In this document: positions 1-60,982 of the stretch, one piece after another
How positions within the stretch are numbered: position 1 is the stretch's first letter
Layout of the letters: each line of letters opens with the position of its first letter
From: Haliotis rufescens
Lineage: Eukaryota
Assembly (NCBI RefSeq): GCF_023055435.1
Contig: NW_025964223.1
Coordinates: 1,922,001-1,986,000, forward strand
Length of the DNA stretch: 64,000 nt
Direction of reading: 5' to 3'
The notes under the pieces: model-generated
Seen by the model: the letters and a program-made list of their open reading frames with translations, nothing else
What the model was told of the DNA's origin: nothing
Databases searched by the model: none
Translations under genes and position numbers: made by a program

Positions 1-444
1 AAGATTGACGACCCCATACCCAGGGTAGGCTTATATAGCCGACATGCGGACCATGTGACCCGGCAAACGGACACAACCAATGAACACGCTCCTTGCATCT
101 CGGCTCTCTCAACCATGGCTTCTGCTGAGCCGAGCATGCAAGAAGCGTGGCATCGTCACATCTTCCCAGCCACTACGCCCGTGTGGGCATAAGCTTCTAC
201 ACAAGGACTACAAAGATAGGTACTACGTCAGCCGCCCAAATCCTTTTAATCTAACCCACCAGCTATATATTTCTAAATATTGACTTTAGCCAAACACAAA
301 TCCTGGGCCGACCCCAAATCTAATTACATTCCAGGTTGTTTGTTTTCTAACACCACACTCAACAATGTTCTGGCTATATGACAGCACATTTCAGGTTGTG
401 AGATATGAAGGTACTGTAGAGGGAGTGAGTTGAACACAACTTAC

Positions 445-754
445 ATGTCTTGATTGAGATCACACTTGACTTTCTGCATGCTTCGTACTGATAGCACACT
501 GGAGATTGTTGTCCAAATGTATACTTCTTGTAAAGTTTGAGTCCCACGACCTTGACCTTGTAGTTGGTCCTGGACCGACAGACAGGCAGGAGTGGGATGC
601 CAGCGCTGACCGGGGCAGACGACATCACAACGTACTCCTTCTGACTTCTCTCACAGAACACAACACACAGACCTGCCTTGCTGTCAGAAGGTCCTGTAGG
701 CTTGAGGCTGTAGTCCAGTGGTGCCTTGTGTACCACCTCCATCTCTAAGACGTC
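445..754 (-). CDS. PHYHIPL: PHYHIP-like gene A, second FN3-like exon (terminal PHYHIP_C exon lies left of the window)
   Basis: cag|GAC GTC TTA GAG ATG (DVLEMEVVHKAPLDY...SRTNYKVKVVGL...VISIKT)T|gtaagt. 310 nt, phase 0/1, same length and phases as the homologous exons of C and D. Confidence 0.85.
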
Positions 755-776
755 CTGTACATAGAAGTTAAGCCTA

Positions 777-938
777 GTGAATGAGTATGTTTTTACGCCC
801 CTTTTAGCAATATTCCAGCAATATCACGGCGGGGGACACCAGAAATGGGCTTCACACATTGTACCCATGTCGGGAATTGAACCCGGGTCTTCGGCGTGAC
901 GAGCAAACGCTTTAACCACTAGGCTACCCGACCTCCCC
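777..938 (-). mobile_element. tRNA-derived SINE family 1 (other copies ~1618-1740 -, 9491-9645 -, 15910-16042 +, 24352-24540 -, 52710-52855 -, 63849-64000 -)
   Basis: Head with A/B boxes (gtagcctagtggttaaagcg...gggttcgattcc), a shared body and a (cact)n tail; multiple dispersed copies. Confidence 0.85.
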
Positions 939-1220
939 AGAAGTTAAAGACTACTATCTTCTAAGGGCATTAAGTCATGGTCTGTGTATGTCCAACACAT
1001 TTTTAAAAATACATATATATGACCATTTTTTTTAAACGGTTTTGTTTGTTTAATGCCGCACTCAGCAATATTCCAGCTATGTGACAACAGCCTGTAAATA
1101 ATCAAGTGTAGGCCAGACTATCCAGTGTCCACAACCATCCACGCCGTCAAGGTACGAGGACACGCCATTAACCAAGTCACTGCGCCTGACCACCCGATTC
1201 ATTTAGTTGCCTACAACTAG

Positions 1221-1496
1221 CAGGGGGCACGGGTGTCCAAGTCGTCTAAGGCGCCGCGATTCGCTGTGCAGAGTTGCGTCCCTTAGGCACGCCAGAAACC
1301 TATGATTGTGGGTTCAAATCCCGATTTTGTTTCAAGGTTTTTCAGCACCATACGCGTGCTCGTGGGTTTCACCGAAGTGGTACATGTCTGAGACCTGCAC
1401 CACTTCGGGCTTTCCTCCCACATGAAGCTGACAAGCCGTGATATGACTGGAATATTGTTAAAAGCGGCGTTAAACCCAACTCACTCACTCACTCAC
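1221..1496 (+). mobile_element. tRNA-derived SINE family 4 nested inside a family-2 copy (related copy 23150-23295 -)
   Basis: tRNA-like head (ggttcaaatccc) and (cact)n tail, flanked by the near-direct repeat gcctacaac(t/c)agc. Confidence 0.7.
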
Positions 1497-2013
1497 GCCT
1501 ACAACCAGCTTTGGTTGCTGGGGATCTGTTCTATCCTGGAATTCTATCTTTGAATACTGAAACCTGGTGTGATTGATAATGACAGTCCTCTAGTTGAGGC
1601 CAGGGAATAGGCAGAACAGCAATATCACGGTGGGGGACACCAGAAATGGGCTTCACACATTGTACCCATGTCAGGAATCAAACCCAGGTCCTTGGAGTGA
1701 CGAGCGGACGCTTTAACCACTAGGCTACCTGACCACCCCAACACCATAACATGGCCAAAGTGTCCTCACATCCACATTAAGGGCTAAAACAAGGACTGGT
1801 CAGCTCAGAATACTGTGTCTGAGTGGGGTATTCATGTTAAACTGCGGCATGGTATTTCAGTAGGCTAGCACTATAAATCGGCACCAGTCTGAACTGGTAC
1901 AAGCAGCCACACACACACGTGCATGCACGTTGCTATATAAGTGAAACAGTCTTGAACACAACGTTAAACCCTCTTTCACCTCACATGTCAATATTAAGAA
2001 GATTCAAATTGGT

Positions 2014-2126
2014 CTGGGCCCACTTGCACAAAGCGATCTTAGCGCTAAGATGATTGTAACTCCCATACTTCAACATAGGCTTACGATAGTCTCAGCGCTA
2101 AGATCGCTTTGTGCAAGAGGGCCCTG
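2014..2126. mobile_element. Short palindromic MITE
   Basis: TIRs gggccc.cttgcacaaagcgatcttagcgct ... agcgctaagatcgctttgtgcaag.gggccc. Confidence 0.7.
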
Positions 2127-2244
2127 GTCCTGTGGTATATTATTGTTGACTTTCAAGTTTAAGAAAAGAATGACAATCTTGACCAACAATCCTGACGTTG
2201 GGGCTTTATGCTGCTCGTGTCTATCAACGTATCAGGTTACCTAC

Positions 2245-2324
2245 CTGTGCACCTAACATGTTTATCATTTTTCCCGGTGTAAACTGGTGAATTTTCCCTC
2301 TCAGGTCCATGGTCTTTATTCTCT
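2245..2324 (-). CDS. PHYHIPL: PHYHIP-like gene A, linker exon
   Basis: ttacag|AG AGA ATA...GCA CAG|gtaggt. 80 nt, phase 1/0, encodes (E)RIKTMDLRGKIHQFTPGKMINMLGAQ. Same length as, and similar to, the gene B linker exon. Confidence 0.8.
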
Positions 2325-2577
2325 CTGTAAGCAATGAAGCAGTCTATGTAGTTGACTCACTCAGTCACTCGAAACAAGATGGTTCTTGTACATTTAAAGT
2401 GGTAACTTAAGGTCACTTGTGTACATTGGAATGGGTGCTCTCCCTTTGTCACACTTTCTTTCAGGAGCAGAGCTCAAAGTCCGCTCAATACTTCTTGATC
2501 AAACTCTGCACAGATATCAGTTGTCTTTTGTTATTTAGGAATTTTGGATTTTTCCATTTTTTTCAGGTTCCATGACA

Positions 2578-2800
2578 ACAAGGTAGACACAATTTTATGG
2601 ATAACAACTTCTTTAATACTGTGAAAAGCGATGTTTCGGTATAGATCCCTATACCGTTGTCAAGGAAGACTTGCTTAACAACAGTATAAGGATCTATACC
2701 GAAACGTCGCTTTTCACAGTATTAAAGAAGTTGTTATCCATAAAATTGTATCTACCTTGTCATCCGTCAACTTCTAAGTAATGCCTATCAAACAATTTAT
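2578..2800. mobile_element. Inverted-repeat insertion, Penelope-like terminal remnant
   Basis: Inverted arms of about 85 bp (2578-2760); 12-bp direct repeat tccatgacaaca at 2569-2580 and 2800-2811. Confidence 0.6.
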
Positions 2801-2939
2801 CCATGACAACATTCAAATCAGTGAAAGGTCCATTTCCAGAGCATAACTGATGAACCATTTGTATTTTGACACTTTACTCACCCACACCCTGATGCTGCTT
2901 GTCCTGAACTAAGGTATAGAGTTCAGTCGAAAAGGAATT

Positions 2940-3287
2940 GTCCTGCCTATTCCTGCTTATTCCCTGGCCTCAAAAAGAGGATTGTTCTGTCTATTCCCTG
3001 GGCTCAACAAGAGGACTGTTCTGCCTATTCCTTGGTCAGGGAATAGGCAGAACAGTCCTCTTGTTGAGGTCAGGGAATAGGCAGAACAGTCCTCTTGTTG
3101 AGGTCAGGGAATAGGCAGAACAGTCCTCTTATTGAGGTCAGGGAATAGGCAGAACAGTCCTCTTGTTGAGGTCAGGGAATAGGCAGTACAGTCCTCTTGT
3201 TGAGGTCAGGGAATAGGCAGTACAGTCCTCTTGTTGAGGTCAGGGAATAGGCAGTACAGTCCTCTTGTTGAGGTCAGGGAATAAGCA
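2940..3287. repeat. 33-bp minisatellite with inverted copies at its left end
   Basis: Unit aggtcagggaataggcagaacagtcctcttgttg. Confidence 0.9.
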
Positions 3288-3361
3288 GGTAAATTCTACT
3301 GAGCTTATGCTGAAACTCAGGGACTTTAGTCCACCGGCAGAAACATCGACCCTTAACATAC

Positions 3362-3680
3362 CTTGTGGATTTGAAGCAGGAGAAATGACAACATTATCGG
3401 TTGCCTCCACCGAGTAGGAAGACACCTGGGGGGAACCGGCTTGTTCGGGGGAAACTTGCAGACCATACCCCTGAATGGTGTGCTCCTGCCCTCTGGAAAA
3501 CCCATACCATCTATACACTAGGAGGGAACTTCTTTTGAACAGACACATTTGCTCCATGGTGCCAAGGTGGTTGTTGACTGCTATCAGGATGTGAAAATTG
3601 TCCCTCCATTTTATGTTTAGCTCCAGAAACGGGAAATCAGTGACTGATGATATTAATATCAGCTTTGTTTCATATAGATT
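3362..3680 (-). CDS. PHYHIPL: PHYHIP-like gene A, first FN3-like exon
   Basis: ttacag|AAT CTA TAT (NLYETKL...LELNIKWRDNFHILIAVNNHLG...YSVEATDNVVISPASNPQ)G|gtatgt. 319 nt, phase 0/1, homologous to 21670-21994. Confidence 0.8.
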
Positions 3681-9970: not shown

Positions 9971-10220
9971 CTGCTTCACCAGAGTGTGGAACTGAAGCAT
10001 TCTCCGATGCCTCCACAGCACATGATGCCACCAGTGGGTCTCTGACGGCGCCGGTACCTGGGTTGTCTTTCAGGTCTCTGACATCTCTCCAGGAACAGAA
10101 TACGTTCCAGATAGCCGAACTGGTTGGTGACAGCAACGAGAACACGGGACATGTTGCCCCATTTTATGTCCAACTGGTGTCACTGGTTTTAAATGAAATT
10201 ACTGATGCGTGATAACTCAG
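9971..10220 (-). pseudogene. Frameshifted relic copy of the first FN3-like exon
   Basis: Homologous peptides split across frames: SYHASVISFKTSD / QLDIKWGNMSRVLVAVTNQFGYLERILFLER / VRDLKDNPG...SCAVEASENASVPHSGEA G|gtttgt. Two deletions relative to paralogs; TAA in the entry frame. Confidence 0.7.
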
Positions 10221-17090: not shown

Positions 17091-18025
17091 TTAGAAAAAG
17101 GTGGGATGTCGTTCAAGGTTACATGTTCTGCATGATGCCTTCTTTGGAATTCCTTCTGTCCGGCTCTGACCTCTTCCTCGAGTACAAACATACTCAAAAT
17201 ACACCTTGCCCTCCCCGCATCTGCTCTGTAACCCTCTGATGTCGACATCCTCTGTGTACAAAAACTCCACATGGAACTCGTCAACCGACACCATTGTGAA
17301 TGTCTTCTTAGCCACCCTTCCTCCAGATCTGGAGTAACTGGCAGTACACTCACCCAGAGATGAAGCCAGTTGCCTAACTTGCCTGGATGGGGGTTGATAC
17401 ATGGCAGAAACAAAGTGTTCAGTACTCATGAGCCCTGTTTGTTGTGCAAGTCTGTCATGCATTGAGAAAGGCTTTCTGTATAGGTATGATGTGTCTCCCA
17501 AATCCTGGTAGGATGTTCCATCCAGAGCTATGTATGAGGGCTCTTCTTTGATGGTGAAAAAAGGATTATCCTTTAAGTCCAGTTCAATAAGTCTTCCCTC
17601 ACAGAATCTGTCTTCAGCTGATTCCTTCTTTGTGACCACAACTGTGACGTAGTGGACGACATTGTGACAGTAGAAGTCTGCAAAATACATCCTGGTGTCC
17701 CATGTAAACAGTTCCTCTGCAGGGATGAAAAGTCGTTTGTCTCCAAAGAACGAGAAGTCTGGTGGCTTCCGTGTGCGGGCATCCAGTGACCCACTGAAGA
17801 AGAGTCCGTTAATCTTCTTGTTGATCGCAGAATATGGGTCGCCATTGTTGTCCTTGATGTACTTCTCCATCACTCCACCTCTGTTGGACATGATGTGTGT
17901 GTAGTAGTGCACAGGCTTATTGCGGTAGAACTGTTTGATGGTGTATTTCCCAGGGTACCGAGACTTGCTCCGACAGTAAGTGACTGCCATGGTTTTCAGC
18001 TGTTGTAATTCCTCTTTGGACATGC
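17091..18025 (-). CDS. PHYHIPL: PHYHIP-like gene B, terminal exon (PHYHIP C-terminal domain)
   Basis: ttcag|GC ATG TCC AAA. Motifs FYRNK, YIKDNNGDP, INGLFFS, FFGDKRL, YFADFYC..HYVTVV, DRFCE.RL.ELD...NPF, VEFLYTEDVD and CRTCN match the PHYHIP/PHYHIPL family as I recall it. Stop TAA at 17091-17093. Reconstructed gene = 1725 nt, 574 aa. Confidence 0.93.
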
Positions 18026-18246
18026 CTGAAAGATGAAGAATGTCATGTGCCAAAACTTCCTGAAAAGGTCTGTCTTATCTCTGTTATTGTGTGCTAAATA
18101 TTTTATTTACATGCTACCCCATTGTATCCGGATTCTAATTTTCTCACTTTCAGTTTTCAGGATTTTAAAATAATGTCATAAAAAGGAGCATTGAGAGAGT
18201 TAACAAGATCTAGGATTGAAAAAAATAAAAAATATGTCCAACTTAC

Positions 18247-18619
18247 AAGTCTTGATGGAGAAGGCTTTTGTTGATTCATGACATTCGTACAGGTAGCAGA
18301 CAGGGGATGGCTGGTCAAAACGATACACTTGGTAATCTTTGAGTCCGACAGCCCTGACCCTGTATTTGGTCCTGGACCGACAGACTGGCAGGAGTTGTAT
18401 GCCAGTGCTTACCGGGGTGGAAGACATCACAACATACTCCTTCTGACTTCCCTCACAGAACACAACACACAGACTTGCTGTACAGCTGGAATATGTTGCT
18501 GGTTGAAGGATGTAGTCTACTGGAGGTCTGTGGCCTGCCTCACTGTCAGAAGGTCCTGGAAGTTTTTGATAGTTGTTGTCCAACTGAGACCTCTCTTTCA
18601 CCTCCATCAGAAGGAGGTC
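18247..18619 (-). CDS. PHYHIPL: PHYHIP-like gene B, second FN3-like exon
   Basis: aacag|GAC CTC CTT CTG ATG...AAG ACT T|gtaagt. 373 nt, phase 0/1; contains LLPVCRSRTKYRVRAVGL. Confidence 0.87.
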
Positions 18620-19236
18620 CTGTTGAAGTTACCAAGACATTTATCAAATGAAATTTGTGGTGTGATCTTATGTAATTCAACTATTTTGAACAACATTTAA
18701 ATTTTCAAGAACTTGATGTGTGCAAGAGGATCAAACTAGTTTTGATAATGGAAATCTATGCTTCCTTTCAACTGTTTGTGGGACATATATGGATGGGTTA
18801 AAATTCACATTTCCCACATCAAAAACTCAATTGATGAATTTACTTGATGACAACCACACACAATTTTACTATTTTACGTTATATACGCTTTTCCATTGGG
18901 TGAGAGGCGCTTTCCATAGGGCGAAAGGCCAGTCACAGGTATGAAAATATAGTTATGTGAAAAAAAAATGAGAATTCACATTCACTGTGTGAGTTCATTG
19001 AAGTATGAACGTTTCAACATGCAGTTTGGCCCTTGCTGTCTCAAGGTTCATACTCCAATTAACTCAGTCAAAGTGAAAGTTTAATTCTTAAATCTTGCCC
19101 AATCTTCAGCCCACGTCAAGGTGTTCTATACTGTAGATATTACTCAACGTGTTAGGCTTTGTGCATGAAGTTCTAAACCCATGCACCTAGTTTTAAGAGA
19201 TCGTTTCAATTGCATGCAAGGACACCCCGTGCTTAC

Positions 19237-19316
19237 CTGTGTCTTGAGCATGTCGATCATTCTGTCACTAAAGAAATGATATTGGGAAACACCCAGGTCT
19301 ACGACTTCTACCCTCT
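19237..19316 (-). CDS. PHYHIPL: PHYHIP-like gene B, linker exon
   Basis: ttgcag|AG AGG GTA...ACA CAG|gtaagc. 80 nt, phase 1/0, encodes (E)RVEVVDLGVSQYHFFSDRMIDMLKTQ. Confidence 0.82.
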
Positions 19317-19555
19317 CTGCAATAAATGAATACGTTTACTCTGTGCTGTCAGATTGAGGTATTAGATATCATGTTATTAATTGCTGAGAGCAGTGTTAAA
19401 CAACGAACAAACAAACAACCAGATTGAGTTATACATGTATTCCTACATATACCCTCCATAAAATGAAGGTGATGTTTGATAATTACAGATGATTACTGAA
19501 ATACAATGGGAGAGTGATGGTGATGGATGGATAAGAAGGACAAGGTGTAACATAC

Positions 19556-20193
19556 TAATCAACAGAACATGTTGGCGGTGTATTGTAAGGGTGTAAACAA
19601 CCAACAGAACATGTTGGCGGTGTATTGTAAGGGTGCGAACAACCAATAGAACATGTTGGCGGTGTATTGTAAGGGTGCGAACAACCAACAGAACATGTTG
19701 GCAGTGTATTGTAAGGGTGCGAACAACCAACAGAACACGTTGGCAGTGTATTGTAAGGGTGCGAACAACCAACAGAACATGTTGGCGGTGTATTGTAAGG
19801 GTGTAAACAACCAACAGAACATGTTGGCGGTGTATTGTAAGGGTGCGAACAACCAACAGAACATGTTGGCGGTGTATTGTAAGGGTGTAAACAACCAACA
19901 GAACATGTTGGCGGTGTATTGTAAGGGTGCGAACAACCAACAGAACACGTTGGCAGTGTATTGTAAGGGTGCGAACAACCAACAGAACATGTTGGCGGTG
20001 TATTGTAAGGGTGCGAACAACCAACAGAACATGTTGGCGGTGTATTGTAAGGGTGCGAACAACCAACAGAACACGTTGGCAGTGTATTGTAAGGGTGCGA
20101 ACAACCAACAGAACATGTTGGCGGTGTATTGTAAGGGTGTAAACAACCAACAGAACTTGTTGGCGGTGTATTGTAAGGGTGCGAACAACCAAC
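19556..20193. repeat. 42-bp minisatellite in a gene B intron
   Basis: Unit aaccaacagaacatgttggcggtgtattgtaagggtgcgaac. Confidence 0.97.
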
Positions 20194-20883
20194 GAGCCAT
20201 TACTGATCCAGTCATCTGAAATGTCCTCTAGCAGTGCCTGGTCCAGTTCGGTTTAAGTAAATGTGTTTAGCGACGGCGTACACGTCTCCCAAGCATGTCC
20301 ATGGGGTGCTTTCTTGGGGAAAGGGTCAGGACTGATGGCTAGTCAATGCATTCGGGGGATGTTTTTGCTACTGGAAGTAGTCAGTTACGATACCTCTCGC
20401 TAAAACCTACCAGTTTGAAGCATGCGAATAGCCCTTATGTGTTAATCACATTGTAGATGACACGTTCCTATCCTGATCGCATACAGTGCATTAAAGCACT
20501 AGTAGAGATTTTACGTGGTGCTATGGCTAAATAAAATTAACAATACTAATGTCTGAGAGAGATTTGACGACTTTTCACTGAAGTGTTCCCCACGGAGAAA
20601 TTGCATGGTTTGACGACCGATCATAACATGAATACTTTACAATCCCCTACTTTTTAGGAGAGCATATATTTATGCTAATTTGCGAAAATAAATCAATATT
20701 TTAATCTCAAATAAATATTTGGTTTTATGATACTGGACATTTGGTAATTGTTCAAGGCATTTCAAACTGACACCATCTGTTTTGTTGAGGTTATGTTGAA
20801 GCCTCGTCCCATCTACCGCTTTATTCAGTGGATAATGCGGGAAACAAGGGGATTGTCGGTGATAGGTTCATAGCACACCTATC

Positions 20884-21374
20884 CAATCTCACTAAAATCA
20901 GATCTACGTTCTCGCTACCGCTAAGCAGAGATCTGAGGACATCCCATTACGGTTCACATCATAACGACCTTCCATCCAACCAATCAGAGCGTCGCTTATC
21001 AGATCATGAAACTGACAGTCAGAATGTGTTTTCTCATCATGCAACCTCGAAAGATGTAACAGAGGTAACGACAGTTACGTTTTTTTGACAATCTAGGCCA
21101 TCTATAAGCCATTCCAGAATGTTCTTTTGATTAGTTGTAAAAGTTTTAATCGAGAATACGTCAAAATATGTTTCGAAACGTAGTCGCCAAGTTCAAACTA
21201 GTGTCGTAAAGCTAAAAAAAGCTGCCTCCTGGTTGGCTCATATCAATTTCTTGTCAATCATTTCACTGGTTGGTCAAAGTTCGCGAACGGTCGTTCTGAC
21301 GTGAACCGTAATGGAATGTCCTCAGATCTTTAAATAGCGGTAGCGAAAACTAAGTTCTGATTTTAATGAGATTG
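20884..21374. mobile_element. MITE with ~75-bp TIRs and 10-bp TSD (Mutator-like)
   Basis: caatctcactaaaatcaga...tctgattttaatgagattg, flanked by cacacctatc at 20874-20883 and 21375-21384. Confidence 0.85.
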
Positions 21375-21669
21375 CACACCTATCCAGCTGAAGACCACTG
21401 CCTAGTGGATAGAGCGTCTGCCAGGAGTGCAGAAGGACCGTGCATCATAACAAGGTGTTAAAGGATCCCACTTATTACCATGCCTAGTTCTCAGCATTAA
21501 GGGTATAAAGGGACTCGGAGTCAGTATACTGTGTCTGAGTGGAGTATCCTTGTTAAACTACGGCATGGTATCTCAGTACGCCAGCACTATCAAACCAGCA
21601 TTCATCTGGATTAATACAAGTAGCCACACACACACACACACACACTAAAACCGACAAATATTGACCTAC

Positions 21670-21994
21670 CTTGAAGTCCAGAAACTCGAGAAATGACAAC
21701 TTTCTTTCCTGCCTCCACAGAGTAGACTGTAGCAGGCGAGGGTCTGACTTGATTTGTTGGGGTGGACTGTCTCAGGCCAAAAACCTCGATAGTATACTGC
21801 TCAGAGTTTGAAAATCCTGAACAACGTAAACGATTGACTTTGCTCCTTTCAAACAGCGTAAGTCTTTTCAATTGGCCAAGCTGGTCACTGACTGTCACAA
21901 GTACCTTGGACATGTCATGCCATTTTATGGTCAGCTTCAGTGATGGAGGATCGGCTTCAGTAGTCACGAATTCAAGATATGATTGGTAGGAGTT
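21670..21994 (-). CDS. PHYHIPL: PHYHIP-like gene B, first FN3-like exon
   Basis: ttccag|AAC TCC TAC (NSYQSYLEF...LTIKWHDMSKVLVTV...SGFSNSEQYTIEVFGL...SGLQ)G|gtaggt. 325 nt, phase 0/1. Confidence 0.83.
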
Positions 21995-22166
21995 CTGGAA
22001 AAAGAATAGATACTTAGAGAAAGTTTTCAGTCTTTTTAACAAGAGGAATGACACTAAAGCATCATAAATACACTTGCCACACTTGCTGTTGGTAAAGTAA
22101 TTTATATAAATTTTAAGGTTAAAACTGTACATTTATCACCAGGACACTGTTGACAGCATTACTTAC

Positions 22167-22178
22167 ATGGTTCTCCAT
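22167..22178 (-). CDS. PHYHIPL: PHYHIP-like gene B, start micro-exon (MENH)
   Basis: Kozak-like accATGG, then AGAACCAT|gtaagt (consensus donor); phase 0. Confidence 0.65.
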
Positions 22179-26010: not shown

Positions 26011-26296
26011 CACTTAACAAGTGGACAAGACAGAGTCACTCGTATATAGTTACAGCATGCCCTCTAGAAACTGTCACATCCCAAAACGTCTTGAATGATT
26101 AAGCCTGCAAGGTTCATGCGGTGGCGCTAAATTCCAATGGTTGCCACCAACAGCGTTCAACATTTTACCAGCGCTTCAGTTTTTGGCTGCCTCTAACAAT
26201 TACTACAAATACCTCACAGTACCTACAAATATATTTACAACTATCCCCACTGCCACGTTACATTCTTCAAGAGGAGAAAGTGTGAATGCCGTGAAA

Positions 26297-27266
26297 ACTT
26301 TCTTGAACATTGCCGATTTCAAGGAGAAAGTTGACCCATCACTCTTGAACATTGCCGATTTCAAGGAGAGAGTAAACCTATCACTCTTGAACATTGCCGA
26401 TTTCAAGGAGAAAGTTGACCCATCACTCTTGAACATTGCCGATTTCAAGGAGAAAGTTGACCCATCACTCTTGAACATTGCCGATTTCAAGGAGAAAGTA
26501 AACCCTTCACTCTTGAACATTGACGATTTCAAGGAGAAAGTAAACCCATTACTCTTGAACATTGACGATTTCAAGGAGAAAGTAAACCCATCACTCTTGA
26601 ACATTGACGATTTCAAGGAGAGAGTTCACCCAACACTCTTGAGCATTGCCGATTTCAAGGAGAAAGTACACCCAACACTCTTGAATATTGACGATTTCAA
26701 GGAGAGAGTGCACCCAACACTCTTGAACATTGCCGATTTCAAGGAGAAAGTACACCCAACACTCTTGAACAATGACGATTTCAAGGAGAAAGTACACCCG
26801 ACACTCTTGAACATTACCGATTTCAAGGAGAAAGTACACCCAACACTCTTGAACATTGCCGATTTCAAGGAGAGAGTACACCCAACACTCTTGAACATTG
26901 CCGATTTCAAGGAGAAAGTAAACCCATCACTCTTGAACATTGACGATTTCATGGAGAGAGTACACCCAACACTCTTGAACATTGCCGATTTCAAGGAGAG
27001 AGTACACCCAACACTCTTGAACATTGCCGATTTCAAGGAGAAAGTACACCCAACACTCTTGAACATTGCCGATTTCAAGGAGAGAGTACACCCAACACTC
27101 TTGAACAATGACGATTTCAAGGAGAAAGTACACCCGACACTCTTGAACATTGCCGATTTCAAGGAGAGAGTACACCCAACACTCTTGAACATTGCCGATT
27201 TCAAGGAGAAAGTTAACCCATCACTCTTGAACATTGACGATTTCATGGAGAAAGTACACCCAGCAC
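26297..27266. repeat. 42-bp minisatellite
   Basis: Unit actcttgaacattgccgatttcaaggagaaagtacacccaac. Confidence 0.97.
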
Positions 27267-27299
27267 TCTATTAGAAAAAAACATTAAATACATATACCG

Positions 27300-31851: not shown

Positions 31852-33374
31852 TGTCATGTATGTTTTACTTTACAAGACATTTTAAAATTTAAATAAGAGT
31901 ATATAACATAGTTGCTTTGGAGCATGTTGGAAAAGACCACCCTTCAAGGACCTCTGGACTGAAGCTGATCCGGGTGGGCTGCTTTTGTCATTTGTATTTT
32001 TATGGTGACGTCAACCAAGGTTCAGTTCAATTTTACTGACTAGTGTACGTTGCATGTTTTTAAGATTATTTCGCTGATCCACATACATATGTGTGGCTGC
32101 TTGTACTTGTTCAGACATATTCTGGTTCACTATACTGACTCAGACACATAATACTGATTCTGAGCCGGCCAGTCCTTGTTTAATCCCCATAATGCCTTGC
32201 GCTAGGCAGGGTAACAACAAGTATCATATTTTGACGTCTTTTGGTATGACGCGGACAGGGAATCGAACCGTGGAGGTTCCTCTGTCCACTACCCCACGGA
32301 GGTGGTCGCAGTTCACAGGAGTTGATCGTGTCAGAAAGCAGGATAGAAGCCAGAGTCTTGTGTTCCTTTAAGAAATTGACTCTTGGGTTTAGTCATCTGT
32401 TCATTACACACCCAAACAATAAATAACTGCACGGCTAAAAAATATTAATTTATTAAAAAACGATGTCATAAGAACAACATGAACAAGTATAAACGTTTTG
32501 GCTTGATAATATCACAAAATGAGGAAATACGTGTACAAAATAGATTCATACAAAAATATTCATGGCTATGATCACGTGATAAGAGATGAATATAAATAGA
32601 AACATTATGGTGAAGCATGTTAAATCTCAACGTGTAATTGCTATGCGATCATGATAACATAGGATTTAGTTGTGCAGTCGATCAATAAAGATTGCACTAA
32701 TGCAAGTACTTAACTAACACAATCATGACAAACATTATTCCACACGGAATCAGTGTATAACTTACAAATATCACCGATTTAGTCCTTTGTTCATTACACA
32801 CCTAAAGGATAAATAACTGAAGGATTAAAAAAATAATTTCATCCAAAAAACACCCTATGACAACAACCATCAACTAGTATAACAGATTTGACATGGAAAT
32901 ATCACAAAATGTAGAAATATGAGTACATATTAAATAGAATTAAACACAAAATATGTATGGCAATGATCACGATGATAAGAGATAAATATAGGCAGAAACA
33001 ATTCTGAAGCCTACGGTTATACTATCAGTCAGATTCATTCAAATAAGATTAAAGTAACACAACACATATTACAAATAGCACATATAGAAGGCATATAATT
33101 CAGTTGGCATTCACAAAAGGCATTTGTTCTGTCATTAAGAGAATGAAAGCCCTTCCATATTCAAAAGAAGTCTCTGCAAAAAGAGGCGTCGACCGTAAGA
33201 ATCAGACTCTATCACGAGTTTGTGTTTATGAAGCACTATCAAATAGTGATGATACCAGGTGTTTATGAATCACTATCAAATACCAGGTGTTCTCCAAAAA
33301 TGGTTAGCGTGATGTCATACAAGCATATAACCTCATTTCAAGTCACCCCTTGTATGCAACTCATCATGTTCGGG

Positions 33375-34153
33375 TTAAGGGTCAAAGCTGCAGTCTGGAC
33401 AGTCAAGCTTCTTAGGAATTCCCTCCTTCTTGCTGCGTCCCCTCCCCCGGACACGGACATGTTTAAAATACACCTTGTCCTCCCCACACTTGTCCATCAA
33501 GCCCCTGATGTCGACATCCTCCGTGTACAGAAACTCCACATGGAACTTGTTGACAGACACCATCGTGAACGTCTTCGGAACATCTTTCTGTCTGGACATG
33601 GAACTTCTCGAGTATCCTCTAAGAATGTCTTCAATTTTTCGTGAGCATGATACAAACTGTGACATGAGTGTGGTGTCTTCTCTGACAGTGAAAAATGGGT
33701 TGAGGTGCAAATCCAGTTCAGGAAGCCTCCCCTCACTGAATCTGTCTTCAGCTGATCCCATCTTTGTGACCACAACTGTGACGTAATGTGTTTCCTTGTG
33801 ACAGTAAAAGTCTGAGAAGTACATCCTGGTGTCTGATGTGAACAGTTCCTCCACCGGGATGAAAAGACGTCTGTTTCCGAAGAAGGAGAAGTTCGGTATT
33901 TTCTTTTTGTTCTTTGATCCGCTGAAGAAGAGGCCATTGATTTTGTTGTTGATTGGACAATATGGGTCGCCATTGTTGTCCTTCAGGTACTTCTCCATCA
34001 CTCCAGCTCTGTTGGACATGATGTTATCATAGTAGGACTCAGGTTTGTTGCGGTAGAACTTCGTAACATTATATCTGCCTGGAGTTTGCAGGTTCTTGGA
34101 ACAAAAGGTCTTTGCTTTGTCCAGAAGCTGCTGGAGATCTGCCTTAGTATTGC
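33375..34153 (-). CDS. PHYHIPL: PHYHIP-like gene C, terminal exon (PHYHIP C-terminal domain)
   Basis: ttacag|GC AAT ACT AAG. 779 nt; FYRNK, YLKDNNGDP, GLFFSGS, YFSDFYCHKETHY, HVEFLYTEDVD, CPDC. Reconstructed gene about 494-497 aa. Confidence 0.93.
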
Positions 34154-34387
34154 CTGTAAACAAGGGAGGAAAGGGGAATATTCAAAATAAACGTTAACTT
34201 TATGTATATTCACGTGACATATTCACAGGCAGGTATACAGTGAAATCTTTTTAATCATTGACATTTGACGACTTGAGCCGATTCTAGAACACACAACAAC
34301 CTTTTCCTCTCTTTCCTCACCAAAACACAGTTGAAAGTGGAGTTTAAACTCACTTATTGTTGACAAATGAAAGCAAAGTCAACTTAC

Positions 34388-34697
34388 ATGTCTTGACAGT
34401 GATGGTGTCTGATCCACCAGTTGGTGTGTAGTCCTGACACACAGCTGACCGTTGTCCAGTTTGGTCCACACTGGAACCTGTGAGTCCCACGACCTTGACC
34501 TTGTAGTTGGTCCTGGACCGACAGACAGGCAGGAGTGGGATGCTGGCGCTGACCGGGGCAGACGACATCACAACGTACTCCTTCTGACTTCTCTCACAGA
34601 ACACAACACACAGACCTGCCTCGCTGTCAGAAGGTCCTGTAGGCTTGAGGCTGTAGTCCAGTGGTGGCTTGTGCTCAACCTCCATCTCAAGTCGATC
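34388..34697 (-). CDS. PHYHIPL: PHYHIP-like gene C, second FN3-like exon
   Basis: ttcag|GAT CGA CTT GAG ATG...AAG ACA T|gtaagt; 310 nt. Confidence 0.87.
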
Positions 34698-34982
34698 CTG
34701 AAAATGATATTTTGTCATCAAAATGAAGGGTCTTCAATTTCTCAAACAAAGTTTGATAATTTCATATCCTGATAAAATACAGAATACCAAAGAAAAATAA
34801 TCTCAATTAGTTTCCTTTAATGTGAGTCAAAACAGGGATATCCAATTAAAACTAAAATACATGTGTGTATCTATTCAGAACGTAAAGTAAAACTACATGT
34901 TTTTAAATGCTTCTCGTCAGACTCTATGTGGCTGGACAACACAGACAGAACAAACGGCAAGACACGAGGACTCCTCACTCAC

Positions 34983-35047
34983 CTGAGTCTCCCCCAACAG
35001 GTGCATCACGTGACCAAGTGAGGAGAACCCACAACTCAAGTCCAACT
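34983..35047 (-). CDS. PHYHIPL: PHYHIP-like gene C, linker exon
   Basis: ttcacag|AG TTG GAC...ACT CAG|gtgagt. 65 nt, phase 1/0, encodes (E)LDLSCGFSSLGHVMHLLGETQ. Confidence 0.8.
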
Positions 35048-35856
35048 CTGTGAAACAAAGAGGAAAACATCATTATTATTATTGTTCATACATGTGAAGG
35101 AAATATGCCATGTATATGAACTTGAAATATTTTGCCCAAACATTCGTGTTTCACTGGGCTTCTGATTCAAATATCGGTGCATCTCCAAATGCCATGCACC
35201 ACCCAAGTATCCTAAAGTAAGTTCGAGTGTCTGTACAACAATACAAGGACATCAAAGTGCATGGTGTATGATAGTAGTAAGGGAAATGGCACAATACGTT
35301 TCCTGAAAATATATACAAGGGGTTGAGACATTTTGTAAGATCACATTTGTCATTTGCTTTGATAGACTACATATCCAAAAAACAAAATTGTGTTCATTCC
35401 ATGTATTGTGTCACAGTTTTGCTGTCAGATATGCACAGTAGACCCTCACAAGACCGGACCCTGTTAATCCGGTCACATGTCAAGTTGTTGGAGTGGTATA
35501 TATGTATTCAAAGGAACACATGATTCAATAATCAGGAAATTTGTTAATCTAGAATTTCTTTAAACAGTACTGTCATGTTAGAAAATGTTTCATTGTGTAG
35601 TAAAGCTTCAAAACGTAGTGTTCCACCCTGTTCAGTGGGAGGGTGTTTGAGGATCAAATGAAGACATGAAACAGGTTTTCTTCAGTCTAAGTGAAATGTT
35701 CTCAACAGACATACATTTAACCTGAATGAGATTAACATAACATAAATTCACCTAAAATTCTACTGATCAATTATGATTACAAAACAGTTATGACTTATAT
35801 ATAAGAACAGATCACGATTTCTGTATAATTTGTTAAATAAAACAATTTTCCCATAC

Positions 35857-36169
35857 CTTGTGTCTGGTAAGTTGGAGAAATGACAAGTTTGCGAGTTGTT
35901 TCCACAGTATACGATGTTGCCAAGGGGTATCTGTCGCTGCTCTGTCCAGTGTCAATCTTCAGTCCGAACACCTGGACTGTGTCCAGATCCGGGACTGACC
36001 GCTCCATATCATTGCCAGCCTTCAGAACAAACAGGTGCTTGAGTGACCCCCGTCGGTTGTTGACTGCAAGCATCACGTGGGATATATCCTTCCCACACTT
36101 GATGTGTACTCTCAATACTGGACGGGAGTATTTATTTGTTTTCAGCGATATCCACGATTCTGATGAATT
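35857..36169 (-). CDS. PHYHIPL: PHYHIP-like gene C, first FN3-like exon
   Basis: tttcag|AAT TCA TCA GAA (NSSESWISLK...VQVFGL...YTVETTRKLVISPTYQTQ)G|gtatgg; 313 nt. Confidence 0.83.
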
Positions 36170-36776
36170 CTGAAAAAACTAAGAAGCAAAACAAGCATGT
36201 TATTTTTGTCTGAAGTGAGGGTTGGATTAAAATCAGAATCAATACATTTCCTTGCATAATTTTAGATTTTCACTATCTAATGTCTAACTACAAGAATAAA
36301 AGCCAATGAATATATAGCTGATCTGATGCTGTTTAAAACATTTACATGCATTTTCTAATTGAATTCTCAGGTGGTAACATTGTTATTTGATTGCACACAT
36401 ATTGTGACCAGGTAACCTTTTTTATGTTTTGAGAACAATTACGTTGAGGTAAGTACATGAATTATGAACTATAGCGATCACTGTAAACAATACCTGTAAT
36501 TACGAATGTCAAAATGTAACAATATATGTTTGTCTTGACTAATAAAGTGACATTAGACGTGCAGTAACTGGTGAGAAGAAAACCTTGACAGGTAAGAGAC
36601 ACTTAGATACCACGATGCCTGTCAGTCCCTTGAATGCCACTTAAAGAGATTCCAGGTCTATTACAATAAACAATCCAATTTCTGTTAGACAATTATTGAA
36701 ATCCTAACATATTATACTTGATGCACCAACAACATATTTTGATCAGAAGAATGAAAACTGCCCTTACAATGCTTAC

Positions 36777-36794
36777 ACATCTATGTTCTTCCAT
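36777..36794 (-). CDS. PHYHIPL: PHYHIP-like gene C, start micro-exon (MEEHRC; alternative donor gives exon end at 36768)
   Basis: aagATGGAAGAACATAGATGT|gtaagcatt|gtaagg. Both donors are phase 0. TATAAG lies about 40 nt upstream. Confidence 0.6.
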
Positions 36795-36893
36795 CTTGTT
36801 CAGTTGTATTCAATGATGTGAGTTCGTCATAGCTTATATGCACAACCCTGTCACTCCTATTGATAGCCAGGGGATTGCATGTTGGGAAACTGC

Positions 36894-36917
36894 TGGTTTT
36901 CCCAAAGGGGATTCCCC
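36894..36917. promoter_or_regulatory. Paired kB/Rel sites upstream of gene C
   Basis: tggttttccc (GGGAAAACCA on minus) + aaa + GGGGATTCCCC, a canonical kB site, 100-125 nt upstream of the ATG. Confidence 0.6.
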
Positions 36918-37380
36918 TAAAGAAGCTTCTCGTCTGACCTTCATCTTGGCCTGGGAGGTGTTATTGGCGCTATCAGAGGTATTACCTGACACAGGTGACC
37001 AGTGTTAGGATGTGTGTGTGTATTTATATAACATCCGGCTTGTATCTGACCTGTGTATTCAGATATTATTTATCATTGTGGTGTTTAACACTGCAGTCCA
37101 ACCACACATGGACAAACTGCTATCAGCAGGTCATTGTAACCTGGTAATCCCGAACTATTTTTAGAACAAGGTTACAACAGCTGAAAGTTAAATGCACTGC
37201 GCACAAAGAGCTTGCATCGTTTGACTTTATGTGAGTAGAATACCAAGATAGACATTTGTTTAATGTTATAGATACTGCTTGATCTTATGTATATTGAAAT
37301 TGGAATATGTATTTAATAGTTAGAATTTTATTTCAGAATGTCCATAAATTATGAAATCAGTCATTGTTATTTTATGATAA

Positions 37381-38445
37381 GTGGTGGAGACTGGATACAA
37401 CTTGAGCGTATGTGGTGGAGACTGGACACAACTTGAGGGTATGTGGTGGAGACTGGACACAACTTGAGGGTATGTGGTGGAGACTGGACACAACTTGAGG
37501 GTAAGTGGTGGAGACTGGACACAACTTGATGGTATGTGGTGGGGACTGGACACAACTTGAGGGTATGTGGTGGAGACTGGACACAACTTGAGGGTATGTG
37601 GTGGAGACTGAACACAACTTGAGGGTATGTGGTGGGGGTTGGGACTGGACACAACTTGAGGGTTTGTGGTGGGGGTGGGTACTGGACACAACTTGAGGGT
37701 ATGTGGTGGAGACTGGACACAACTTGAGGGTATGTGGTGGAGACTGGACACAACTTGAGAGTATGTGGTGGAGACTGGACACAACTTGAGAGTATATGGT
37801 GGAGACTGGACACAACTTGAGGGTATGTGGTGGAGACTGGACACAACTTGAGGGTAAGTGGTGGAGACTGGACACAACTTGATGGTATGTGGTGGGGACT
37901 GGACACAACTTGAGGGTATGTGGTGGAGACTGGACACAACTTGAGGGTATGTGGTGGAGACTGGACACAACTTGAGGGTATGTGGTGGAGACTGGACACA
38001 ACTTGAGGGTATGTGGTGGAGACTGGATACAACTTGAGGGTATGTGGTGGAGACTGGATACAACTTGAGCGTATGTGGTGGGGACTGGACACAACTTGAG
38101 GGTATGTGGTGGAGACTGGATACAACTTGAGCGTATGTGGTGGAGACTGGATACAACTTGAGGGTATGTGGTGGAGACTGGATACAACTTGAGGGTATGT
38201 GGTGGAGACTGGACACAACTTGAGGGTATGTGGTGGAGACTGGACACAACTTGAGAGTATGTGGTGGAGACTGGATACAACTTGAGCGTATGTGGTGGAG
38301 ACTGGACACAACTTGAGAGTATGTGGTGGAGACTGGACACAACTTGAGAGTATGTGGTGGAGACTGGACACAACTTGAGGGTATGTGGTGGAGACTGGAC
38401 ACAACTTGAGGGTATGTGGTGGGGGTTGGGACCGGACCCAACTTG
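37381..38445. repeat. 31-bp minisatellite upstream of gene C
   Basis: Unit gtggtggagactggacacaacttgagggtat. Confidence 0.97.
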
Positions 38446-38997
38446 AAGGTACGTTGTTAGGACTGGAATGGATCATTGAAATAATGTACTCACACATTTA
38501 ATAATGACACGACTGAAAAAAGCTCTTCAAACGCTGATGTAGGATTGAAAGGGTCAGGAGGAATTATCTGATTAAGTTTTCCTACCACCTGACATGCATG
38601 CCAAAAGTCTCAGAAAACTTGGAAACATCATGACGCAGACTAGTTTTGTGGGAAGCAAAATGAGTCTCCGCATAAACAACTGAAAAGGATAACTAACGAT
38701 GATAAACAACAATCACAAAACATTCAGAAGTTACAAAGAGAATTTTATATACACCTCGTCAAAAGGATCGCACCAAGGTTTTTGATAATCAGAAAAGAGA
38801 TTGGTAAGGAGAAGCTGGAAAGCGAAACTAAAGCAATGAAAACTGTTACTTGATGTCCAATAAGATGTTGATTTTATGACTAATAGGAAACATAAGCATT
38901 TGTAAAGAAAAACAAATTATTCGCAAGCGACTACAAGGACTGTAATTTGGGATCAATACTGGCTGTATAAGTAAGGTAACTGTCCATAATGAGATTG

Positions 38998-41103: not shown

Positions 41104-43189
41104 ACATAGTTGCTTAGGGGCATGTTGGAAAAGACCACCCTCCAAGGACCTCTGGACTGAAGCTGATCAGGGTGGGTTGCTTTTGTCATTTGTTTTTTTA
41201 TGGTGACATCAACCAAGATTCCGCTGTATTTTACTGACTGGTGTGTGTTGCATGTTTGAGATTATTTCGCTCACCTACATACATGTGTGTGGCTGCTTGC
41301 TTGATGCTGCTTCTGGTTCAGACTCACTATACTGACTCATACACATAATACTGATTCTGAGCCGGCCAGTCCTTGTTTAATCCCCATAATGCCTTGCGCT
41401 AGGCAGGGTAACAACAAGTATCATGTTTTGACGTATTCTGGTATGAAGCGGAGAGGGAATCGAACCGTGGACTTTCCTCTGTCCAGGCAGAGGCTCTGTC
41501 CACTACCCCACGGAGGTGGTCGCAGTTCACAGGAGTTGATCGGAGTTTAAGAAATTGACTCTTGGGTTTAGTCATCTGTTCATTACACACCCAAACAATA
41601 AATAACTGCAGGGCTAACAAAATATTAATTTATTAAAAAACGATGTCATAAGAACAACATGAACAAGTATAAACGTTTTGGCTTGATAATATCACAAAAT
41701 GTAGAAATACGTGTACAAAATAGATTCATACAAAAATATTCATTGCTATGATCACGTGATAAGAGATGAATATAAATAGAAACATTATGGTGAAGCCTAC
41801 GTTAATACTTTGGGCCAGATTTGTTCCAACAAGATTAAAGAAACACAACCCATATTTCAAGTAGCACAAAGCTTGCTGCTACAATCATGAAAATGTCACA
41901 AAATGTAGACATACGAGTATATGTTAAAAGCATAGAAAGCATATACAGAGCTATAATCATGATGATAAGAAATGAATAGAAATAGAAATAATATCGCAAA
42001 GTCTGCTGTAATACTATCAGCAAAATAAAATAAACATATTTGTTCAAACATAACAAATATTTACAACATTGATAACAATGAAAATCATGAAAATATCACA
42101 TGGTGGATTGACAAACGTAACCAACAAACTCGACCGGGAACTATGACGGACACTGTATTAATAGACGTTCTATTTTCAGGCATGTCATAACAGATAAAAA
42201 AGAAACACGGTACACATTATGACTAAAACTGGTGAAGCAATATTACCTTCTTTGATGTGTTTGATACAACTGCCAACACACAATGCGTCATCACATACAG
42301 AAATGGGATATTTATACATAAAACTATTGCACTGAAGAGAGGCATGGAATGGACACAGAAAAAAAACACATGTTAAATCTCAACGTGTAATTGCTATGAG
42401 ATCATGATAACATAGGATTTAGTTGTGCAGTCGATCAATAAAGATTGCACTAATGCAAGTACTTAACTAACACAATCATTACAAACATTATTCCACACGG
42501 AATCAGTGTATAACTTACAAATGTGACACTGGAAGCCAGCACCGATTTAGTCCTTTGTTCATTACACACCTAAAAGATAAATAACTGAAGGATTAAAAAA
42601 AATAATTTCATCCAAAAAACACCCTATGACAACAACCATCAACTAGTATAACAGATTTGACATGGAAATATCACAAAATGTAGAAATATGTGTACATATT
42701 AGATAGAATTAAACACAAAATATGTATGGCAATGATCACGATGATAAGAGATAAATATAGGCAGAAACAATTCTGAAGCCTACGGTTATACTATCAGTCA
42801 GATTCATTCAAATAAGATTAAAGTAACACAACACATATTACAAATAGCACATAGAGGAGGCATATAATTCAGTTGGCATTCACAAAAGGCATTTGTTCTG
42901 TCATTAAGAGAATGAAAGCCCTTCCATATTCAAAAGAAGTCTCTGCTAAAAGAGGCGTCGACCGTAAGAATCAGACTCTATCACGAGTTTGTGTTTATGA
43001 AGCACTATCAAATAGTGACGACACCAGGTGTTTATGAATCACTATCAAATAGTGACGACACCAGGTGTTTATGAATCACTATCAAATAGTGACGATACCA
43101 GGTGTTCTCCAAAAATGGTTAGCGTGATGTCATACAGGCATATAACCTCATTTCATGTCACCCCTTGGATGCAACTCATCATGTTCGGG

Positions 43190-43968
43190 TTAAGGGTCAA
43201 AGCTGCAGTCTGGACAGTCAAGCTTCTTAGGAATTCCCTCCTTCTTGCTGCGTCCCCTCCCACGGACACGGACATGTTTAAAATACACCTTGTCCTCCCC
43301 ACACTTGTCCATCAAGCCCCTGATGTCGACATCCTCCGTGTACAGAAACTCCACATGGAACTTGTTGACAGACACCATCTTGAACGTCTTCGGAACATCT
43401 TTCTGTCTGGACATGGAACTTCTCGAGTATCCTCTAAGAATGTCTTCAACTTTTCGTGAGCATGATACAAACTGTGACATGAGTGTGGGGCCTTCTCTGA
43501 CAGTGAAAAATGGGTTGAGGTGCAAATCCAGTTCAGGAAGCCTCCCCTCACTGAATCTGTCTTCAGCTGATCCCCTCTTTGTGACCACAACTGTGACGTA
43601 ATGTGTTTCCTTGTGACAGTAAAAGTCTGAGAAGTACATCCTGGTGTCTGATGTGAACAGTTCCTCCACCGGGATGAAAAGACGTCTGTTTCCGAAGAAG
43701 GAGAAGTTCGGTATTTTCTTTTTGTTCTTTGATCCGCTGAAGAAGAGGCCATTGATTGTGTTGTTGATTGGACAATATGGGTCGCCATTGTTGTCCTTCA
43801 GGTACTTCTCCATCACTCCAGCTCTGTTGGACATGATGTTATCATAGTAGGACTCAGGTTTGTTGCGGTAGAACCTCGTAACATTATATCTGCCTGGAGT
43901 TTGCAGGTTCTTGGAACAAAAGGTCTTTGCTTTGTCCAGAAGCTGCTGGAGATCTGCCTTAGTATTGC
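43190..43968 (-). CDS. PHYHIPL: PHYHIP-like gene D, terminal exon (PHYHIP C-terminal domain)
   Basis: 779 nt; 8 nt differences from the gene C exon by manual comparison. Confidence 0.93.
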
Positions 43969-44202
43969 CTGTAAACAAGGGAGGAAAGGGGAATATTCAA
44001 AATAAACGTTAACTTTATGTATATTCACGTGACATATTCACAGGCAGGTATACAGTGAAATCTTTTTAATCATTGACATTTGACGACTTGAGCCGATTCT
44101 AGAACACACAACAACCTTTTCCTCTCTTTCCTCACCAAAACACAGTTGAAAGTGGAGTTTAAACTCACTTATTGTTGACAAATGAAAGCAAAGTCAACTT
44201 AC

Positions 44203-44512
44203 ATGTCTTGACAGTGATGGTGTCTGATCCACCAGTTGGTGTGTAGTCCTGACACACAGCTGACCGTTGTCCAGTTTGGTCCACACTGGAACCTGTGAGT
44301 CCCACGACCTTGACCTTGTAGTTGGTCCTGGACCGACAGACAGGCAGGAGTGGGATGCTGGCGCTGACCGGGGCAGACGACATCACAACGTACTCCTTCT
44401 GACTTCTCTCACAGAACACAACACACAGACCTGCCTCGCTGTCAGAAGGTCCTGTAGGCTTGAGGCTGTAGTCCAGTGGTGGCTTGTGTACCACCTCCAT
44501 CTCTAATCGATC
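44203..44512 (-). CDS. PHYHIPL: PHYHIP-like gene D, second FN3-like exon
   Basis: ttcag|GAT CGA TTA GAG ATG...ACA T|gtaagt; 310 nt. Confidence 0.87.
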
Positions 44513-44796
44513 CTGAAATTGACATTTTGTCATCAAAATGAAGGGTCTTCAATTTCTCAAACAAAGTTTGATAATTTCATATCCTGATAAAATACAGAAT
44601 ACCAAAGACAAAATCTCAATTTGTTTCCTTAAATGTGAGTCAAAACAGGGATATCCAATTAAAACTGAAGAATACATGTGTGTATCTATTCAGAACGTAT
44701 AGTAATACTCATGTTTTTAAATGCTTCTCGTCAGACTCTATGTGGCTGGACAACACAGACAGAACAAACGGCAAGACACGAGGACTCCTCACTCAC

Positions 44797-44861
44797 CTGA
44801 GTCTCCCCCAACAGGTGCATCACGTGACCAAGAGAGGAGAACCCACAACTCAAGTCCAACT
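44797..44861 (-). CDS. PHYHIPL: PHYHIP-like gene D, linker exon
   Basis: 65 nt, bounded by AG/GT, near-identical to 34983-35047. Confidence 0.8.
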
Positions 44862-45602
44862 CTGTGAAACAAAGAGGAAAACATTATTATTCTTATTGTT
44901 CATACATGTGAAGGAAATATGCCATGTATATGAACTTGAAATATTTTGCCCAAACATTCGTGTTTCACTGGGCTTCTGATTCAAATATCGGTGCATCTCC
45001 AAATGTCATGCACCACCCAAGTATCCTATAGTAAGTTCGAGTGTCTGTACAACAATACAAGGACATCAAAGGGCATGGTGTATGATATTAGTAAGGGAAA
45101 TGGCACAATACGTTTCCTGAAAATATATACAAGGGGTTGAGACATTTTGTAAGATCACATTTGTCATTTGCTTTGATAGACTACATATCCAAAAAACAAA
45201 ATTGTGTTCATTCCATGTATTGTGTCACAGTTTTGCTGTCAGATATGCACAGTAGACCCTCACAAGACCGGACCCTGTTCATAAATTTGTTAATCTAGAA
45301 TTTCTTTAAAAAGTACTGTCATGTTAGAAAATGTTTCATTGTGTAGTTAAGCTTCAAAACGTAGTGTTCCACCCTGTTCAGTGGGAGGGTGTTTGAGGAT
45401 CAAATGAAGACATGAAACAGGTTTTCTTCAGTCTAAGTGAAATGTTCTCAACAGACATACATTTAACCTGAATGAGATTAACATAACATAAATTCACCTA
45501 AAATTCTACTGATCAATTATGATTACAAAACAGTTATGACTTATATATAAGAACAGATCACGATTTCTGTATAATTTGTTAAATAAAACAATTTTCTCAT
45601 AC

Positions 45603-45915
45603 CTTGTGTCTGGTAAGTTGGAGAGATGACAAGTTTGCGAGTTGTTTCCACAGTATACGATGTTGCAAAGGGGTATCTGTCGCCGCTCTGTCCAGTGTCA
45701 ATCTTCAGTCCGAACACCTGGACTGTGACCAGATCCGGGACTGACCGCTCCATATCCTTGCCAGCCTTCAGAACAAACAGGTGCTTGAGTGACCCCCGTC
45801 GGTTGTTGACTGCAAGCATCACGTGGGATATATCCTTCCCACACTTGATGTGTACACTCAATACTGGACGGGAGTATTTATTTGTTTTCAGTGATATCCA
45901 CGATTCTGATGAATT
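45603..45915 (-). CDS. PHYHIPL: PHYHIP-like gene D, first FN3-like exon
   Basis: 313 nt, bounded by AG/GT, near-identical to 35857-36169. Confidence 0.83.
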
Positions 45916-46521
45916 CTGAAAAAACTAAGAAGACAAAACGAGCATGTTATTTTTGTCTGAAGTGAGGGTTGGATTAAAATCAGAATCAATACATTTCCTT
46001 GCATAATTTTAGATTTTCACTATCTAATGTCTAACTACAAGAATAATAGCCAATGAATATATAGCTGATCTGATGCTGTTTAAAACATTTACATGCATTT
46101 TCTAATTGAATTCTCAGGTGGTAACATTGTTATTTGATTGCACACATATAGTGACCAAGTAACCTGTTTGATGTTTTGAGAACAATTACGTTGAGGTAAG
46201 TACATGAATTGTGAACTATAGCGATCACTGTAAACAATACCTGTAATTACGAGTGTCAAAATGTAACAATATATGTTTGTCTTGACTAATAAAGTGATAT
46301 TAGACGTGCAGTAACTGCTGGGAAGAAAACCTTGAGAGGTAAGACACTTAGATACCACGATGCCTGTCAGTCCCTTGAATGCCACTTAAAGAGATTCCAG
46401 GTCTATTACAATAAACAATCCAATTTCTGTTAGACAATTATTGAAATCCTAACATATTATACTTGATGCACCAACAACATATTTTGATCAGAAGAATGAA
46501 AACTGCCCTTACCATGCTTAC

Positions 46522-46539
46522 ATGTCTATGTTCTTCCAT
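46522..46539 (-). CDS. PHYHIPL: PHYHIP-like gene D, start micro-exon (MEEHRH; alternative donor gives exon end at 46513)
   Basis: aagATGGAAGAACATAGACAT|gtaagcatg|gtaagg. Confidence 0.6.
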
Positions 46540-46638
46540 CTTGTTCAGTAGTATTCAATGATGTGAGTTCGTCATATCTTATATGCACAGCCCTGTCACT
46601 CCTATTGATAGCCAGGGGACTGCAGTGTGGGAAACTGC

Positions 46639-46662
46639 TGGTTTTCCCAAAGGGGATTCCCC
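46639..46662. promoter_or_regulatory. Paired kB/Rel sites upstream of gene D
   Basis: tggttttccc-aaa-ggggattcccc, identical to gene C. Confidence 0.6.
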
Positions 46663-47110
46663 TAAAGAAGCTTCTCGTCTGACCTTCATCTTGGCCTGGG
46701 AGGTGTTATTGGCGCTATCAGACTCATTACCAGACACAGGTGATCAGTGTGTGGATGTGTGTGTGTATTCATATAACATCCGGCTTGTATCTGACGGGTG
46801 TATTCAGATATTATGTATCATTTTGGTGTTTAACACTGCAGTCCAACCACACATGGACAAACTGCTATCAGCAGGTCATTGTAACCTGGTAATCCCGAAC
46901 TAATTTTAGAATAAGGTTACAACAGCTGAAAGTTAAATGCACTGCGCACAAAGAGCTTGCATCGTTTGACTGACGTTGAGTAGGATACCAAGATGTTATA
47001 GATACTGCTTGATCTTGTGTATATTGAAATTGGAATATCTATTTAATAGTTAGAATTTTATTTCAGAATGTCCATAAATTATGAAATCAGTCATTGTTGT
47101 TTTATAATAA

Positions 47111-60950: not shown

Positions 60951-60982
60951 AGATCTTGGAGTCTGGTTGAAATCCCCAGGAT

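Follow-up and report, generated by a model that had tools for sequence, protein, structure and literature searches.

A tandem PHYHIP-like gene of Haliotis rufescens encodes a C-terminal domain that likely adopts a very divergent ADP-ribosyltransferase fold

A 64,000-nucleotide stretch of the genome of the abalone Haliotis rufescens (the window; contig NW_025964223.1, positions 1,922,001 to 1,986,000) carries, on its minus strand, a PHYHIP-like gene, here termed B (17091..22178), whose last exon encodes a domain predicted to belong to the ADP-ribosyltransferase (ART) superfamily. B encodes 574 amino acids in five coding exons (22167-22178, 21670-21994, 19237-19316, 18247-18619 and 17091-18025), and splicing these across four introns, all GT..AG, yields exactly the H. 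rufescens RefSeq protein XP_046332187.2 (LOC124115306; P0156). All four splice joints are present in contigs from three sequencing runs of one study, guessed to be RNA, and a fourth run covers the last exon only; no run recorded as RNA contains the B stretch. No hydrophobic N-terminus and no membrane segment were found. The N-terminal half comprises two beta-rich domains, neither of which was matched in a Pfam search; as fn3 was matched in 7 of 145 aligned relatives and not in B, our label “FN3-like” for these domains is inferred. The last exon (17091..18025, minus strand) holds the entire PHYHIP_C domain, for which Pfam, an AlphaFold2 (AF2) model and a fold search provide the evidence discussed below. 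Within it lies an insertion of ~70–80 residues (17319..17522, minus strand) that is disordered in the model (predicted local distance difference test, pLDDT, <50 over residues 181–229). It is longer than nearly all others in the family, separating N153 from E253 by 100 residues as against 18–34 in most relatives, and contigs cover it with zero differences.

An earlier note on this DNA had proposed, on the basis of three short motifs, that the domain resembles ARTs of the cholera-toxin clade, with their Arg-Ser-Glu (R-S-E) triad. The motifs themselves are borne out: FYRN (from 17930), GLFFSGS (17807) and FHVEFLY (17276) follow one another on the minus strand in one open frame (17091–18074), the glutamate codon of B lies where it had been placed (17265–17267), and the same order recurs in paralogs C (34058, 33935, 33545) and D (43873, 43750, 43360). 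The domains of B, C and D each match Pfam family PHYHIP_C (PF19281; E ~1e-29 to 1e-30, 8e-31 for B); a profile score of 107.7 bits compares with a curated cut-off of 27. By itself, motif order is modest to weak evidence, because a loose R-S-E expression also matched 565 of 20,000 shuffled B sequences (302 with spacing limits) and 222 of 20,000 shuffled C sequences (99 with spacing limits), i.e., rates of 1.5–2.8% and 0.5–1.1%, respectively. Moreover, B, C and D are paralogs, so that the recurrence of the motifs does not constitute independent observations.

The case for an ART fold is carried by the predicted structure. In the AF2 model of the B domain (pLDDT 84.9), DSSP assigns strands to residues 72–77 and 250–256, the latter bearing E253, and fold searches against a library of 48,161 structures returned, on two occasions, 40 of 40 matches from the ART superfamily. 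The best were Tpt1/KptA and DUF952 (2jqn), with Z-scores of 4.0 and 3.6 and root-mean-square deviations (rmsd) of 2.9–3.7 Å; SPN and Tne2 were also within the matches, and Scabin, pertussis, PltA, CARDS and pierisin matched weakly. Neither fold list contains chains of cholera toxin, C3, VIP2 or ART2, an absence that is no evidence either way. Start offsets align the invariant Arg34 with the strand-1 residue in each of a dozen unrelated ARTs, which we take to include residues 862 of PARP1, 9 of pertussis S1, 77 of Scabin and 440 of ExoA, reference numbers that a literature check failed to confirm. By end offsets, which are approximate and follow correction for an 8-residue helix, E253 falls on residues 152 of DarT1, 160 of DarT2 and 324–325 of CopC. 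Coevolution across 277 domains gave strand 1–3 and loop–strand 2 pairs, too noisy for a clear strand order to compare with the 4-5-2/1-3-6 arrangement of ARTs.

Searches at the sequence level gave no such link. phmmer against the PDB produced zero matches at E ≤10 and hmmsearch five, all by chance; Pfam annotation of 145 members included no ART family among the 25 listed of 44 families; and HHalign against fragments from the H. rufescens genome, 10 of PARP type and 4 of ARTC type, gave probabilities <1%. PHROGs returned 22 singletons only, ESM Atlas unnamed and uninformative clusters (0.90–0.92), and a search for viral relatives 60 pattern matches, none confirmed. We conclude from the model that PHYHIP_C is likely a very divergent ART-superfamily fold and a new ART family. 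The reading in the earlier note is partly supported: an ART-like fold is predicted, and membership in the cholera-clade R-S-E group is improbable.

The evidence on that second point comes from conservation. From 282 proteins we obtained 277 domains of at least 150 residues, 242 of which were kept at <80% identity. Arg34 of FYRN (17922..17924, minus strand), which lies on a DSSP strand and is the predicted NAD-binding residue of strand 1, is kept in 224 of 227 domains and is never His; Glu253 (17265..17267, minus strand), the predicted catalytic glutamate of strand 5, is kept in 228 of 236, the remainder being D, Q or H. Between them, the GLFFSGS strand (17787..17807, minus strand) contains F75 (codon 17799-17801), kept in 226 of 239 domains and replaced by His in six, and S77 (codon 17793-17795), a position at which only 95 of 241 domains have Ser and A, G, M, N, L and C are common; S79 is found in only 46 of 232. 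Among 213 complete, non-redundant domains, 193 combine R, F and E, 82 combine R, S77 and E, and 19 carry R, S-x-S and E. The S-x-S of B, C and D is a sub-family trait and does not characterize the family.

A column comparison of human ART-like domains (PMC7955679, Table 1) places the S-x-S of ARTC enzymes opposite Y-F-A/S of PARPs. F75-F76-S/A/G fits the YFA/YFS/YLS column of that table, which makes S77 the variable third position. Profile scores agree in direction (F75, 11.2 against PARP-type strand 2; S77, −2.6 against ARTC-type strand 2), with small reference sets of 10 and 4 sequences, respectively, drawn from exons of the H. rufescens genome. A point against F75 is that Y113 scores higher still on the PARP strand (12.5). 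Chain order and the coevolving pairs (M52-F75, Y55-L74, I56-N72, L74-F93, F32-L98 and K54-D259), in an analysis that is noisy, favor residues 72–77 as strand 2. On balance, we hold it probable that the triad is Arg-Phe-Glu (R-F-E) rather than R-S-E, with F75 its likely second position.

Besides this putative triad, further residues are near-invariant. They include K57, G61, D62, N68, G73, S91, F/Y93, G94, R97, D116, C119, H124, C141, N153, K294, C298 and C301. The K57-D58-x-N-G-D62 segment (17838..17855, minus strand; K57 in 236 of 237 domains, G61 in 237 of 238, D62 in 222 of 238) may form the donor loop; S91-x-F/Y93-G94-x-x-R97 (17733..17753, minus strand; 237, 240, 241 and 238 of 242, respectively) would supply a second nicotinamide-stacking aromatic and the start of strand 3. 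A following segment (17652..17678, minus strand) holds D116 (239 of 242), a candidate acceptor-binding residue, together with C119 (242 of 242) and H124 (241 of 242), which are candidate zinc ligands along with C298 (226 of 230) and C301 (228 of 229) of a C-terminal CxxC (17121..17132, minus strand). Residue 251 is variable (W, H, R, T or L; His in B, C and D), so that PHYHIP_C has no Q/E-x-E motif. Paralogs C and D, in their last exons (about 33375-34153 and 43190-43968, respectively), encode Ser at position 141 of the B numbering, a Cys in 240 of 242 relatives.

Combining these features, we lean toward PHYHIP_C being a cytosolic, NAD+-consuming mono-ADP-ribosyltransferase, a predicted divergent member of the ART fold. 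NAD+ would be held between strands 1, 2 and 5, with Arg34 contacting its phosphates, Phe75 and Phe/Tyr93 flanking the nicotinamide, and Glu253 holding the ribose 2′-OH and driving nicotinamide loss. With no Glu or Gln at E253 −2, the acceptor may be held by Asp116 and the K57/D58/D62 loop, a proposal by spacing analogy with N104/R52/D54 of DarT1 and D230/D172 of CopC. The two FN3-like domains would choose the target, and C119, H124, C298 and C301 would coordinate a structural zinc. The tandem expansion may point to a role in conflict or defence.

An ART fold without transfer appears unlikely, whether the domain would hydrolyze NAD+ as the glycohydrolases SPN and Tne2 do or serve as a scaffold that binds NAD or ADP-ribose without catalysis. 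The fold matches to SPN and Tne2, the absence of Q or E two residues before E253 and the existence of inactive ART-like domains in humans, PARP13 and TASOR among them (PMC7955679, Table 1), speak for it; against it, the full polar pocket set, E253 and D116 included, is near-invariant, and an invariant D116-type residue suggests an acceptor site. Pseudoenzymes usually lose pocket residues. A true R-S-E enzyme of the cholera/pertussis clade, with S77 as the triad serine, would accord with the motif order in B, C and D and is improbable given the residue counts and strand-2 scores above and a model strand that stops at 77. Equally poorly placed is a novel zinc-binding alpha/beta fold whose twisted sheet resembles ARTs by chance, as the silent sequence searches might suggest, in view of the uniform fold matches and the position of Arg34.

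Most doubtful of all is the broadest extension, that the entire PHYHIP family, human PHYHIP and PHYHIPL included, consists of active animal ARTs like CopC/OspC3, with R-F-E, an invariant D62/D116 Asp pair and possibly a non-canonical arginine modification such as ADP-riboxanation, which is known to date from bacterial effectors only, and with a possible defence role for the tandem expansion in molluscs. Named PHYHIP_C proteins belong to gastropods, bivalves, Lingula and nematodes (molluscs, brachiopods and nematodes), and homolog searches listed no vertebrate PHYHIP by name. If PHYHIP_C is an ART whose pocket is an Arg-Phe-Glu hybrid, these phyla, and by Pfam membership vertebrates too, would harbor an additional family of animal ARTs, a further exception to the two-class H-Y-E/R-S-E scheme, and the PHYHIP family may be overlooked NAD-using enzymes. 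No published PHYHIP–ART link was found in the titles and abstract openings of a library with few subscription papers; by title and abstract, PHYHIP with ADP-ribosyltransferase returned unrelated gene lists only, and the literature search found no biochemical activity, fold or enzyme function for PHYHIP proteins. PHYHIP has zero mentions in the main text of PMC7955679 and PMC11377751, and the human ART-like domains catalogued in Table 1 of the former (2021) do not include it. Earlier automatic annotation of the fold may exist in structure-classification databases.

Five copies lie head to tail, B among them, and two of the five extend beyond the left edge of the window. Upstream exons of paralog A (443..3680, minus strand) were located by tblastn with P0160, its PHYHIP_C exon lying just left of the window (locus L010). 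Paralogs C (33375..36178; Arg codon 34050-34052, Glu codon 33534-33536) and D (43190..45924; 43865-43867 and 43349-43351), both on the minus strand, are recent duplicates: 33222-38422 and 43028-48158 reflect a ~10 kb duplication (97.9% over 2255 bp). The ratio of non-synonymous to synonymous rates (dN/dS) is 0.23–0.36 in nine of ten pairs of the five copies; the tenth, C against D over the domain exon, has one synonymous and seven non-synonymous changes, too few for a selection call. An orphan fragment with an in-frame stop (9975-10217, minus strand) is probably a relic; it is similar to the first large exon in the paralog that lies to the left of the window. Long minisatellite arrays (19560-20200, 26099-27274, 37320-38500, 47050-50284 and 58200-61250) give spurious open frames.

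Genome-wide, 21 PHYHIP_C matches (20 without internal stops) lie mainly in clusters on two contigs. The second tandem cluster (contig C179; loci L002-L004, L007-L009, L014, L016 and L020) has at least nine copies, with G or N at 77, no 262–269 helix and, in some, long repetitive tails. Proteins P0018, P0191 and P0192 bear two tandem PHYHIP_C domains each; those among them from Haliotis rubra may be fused gene models. The genome also contains four or five single-exon ARTC-type genes (PF01129; loci L058-L061) with R-STS-E motifs, three or four of them clustered on contig C90, and clusters of PARP-domain exons on contigs C35, C13 and C24 (50 PF00644 matches in total). The clam CARP-1, the known shellfish ART, is described as an ARTC-class DNA enzyme (PMC8883491).

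Relative to PHYHIP/PHYHIPL proteins at large (PF19281), the abalone copies are expanded and bear two divergent N-terminal beta domains missed by Pfam, B having in addition its long insertion. Tpt1/KptA and DUF952, closest by Z and rmsd, lack the catalytic Glu (H-H-V in TRPT1; PMC7955679, Table 1), whereas it is retained in PHYHIP_C, a domain of roughly double their size; the six relatives with His75 recall H-H-h enzymes. DarT1 and DarT2 (8baq, 7omv) have His where PHYHIP_C has its strand-1 Arg, and PHYHIP_C differs from them in its putative zinc site and in having no antitoxin neighbor. The ADP-riboxanases CopC and OspC3 (7xn4, 7wr5; rmsd 5–6 Å) have an H-F-E triad, with Arg for His in PHYHIP_C, a His at Glu +2 where PHYHIP_C has F or L, and an ankyrin domain that finds no match in B; their Asp pair is equivalent by spacing only. 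ARTD/PARP H-Y-E enzymes likewise have a strand-1 His (H-G-T/S). The ARTC cholera/pertussis clade shares with PHYHIP_C an aromatic-Arg on strand 1 and a late Glu followed by hydrophobics, but PHYHIP_C is without its conserved S-x-S, Q/E-x-E or signal peptide, and ARTC fold matches have Z-scores below those of DarT and Tpt1.
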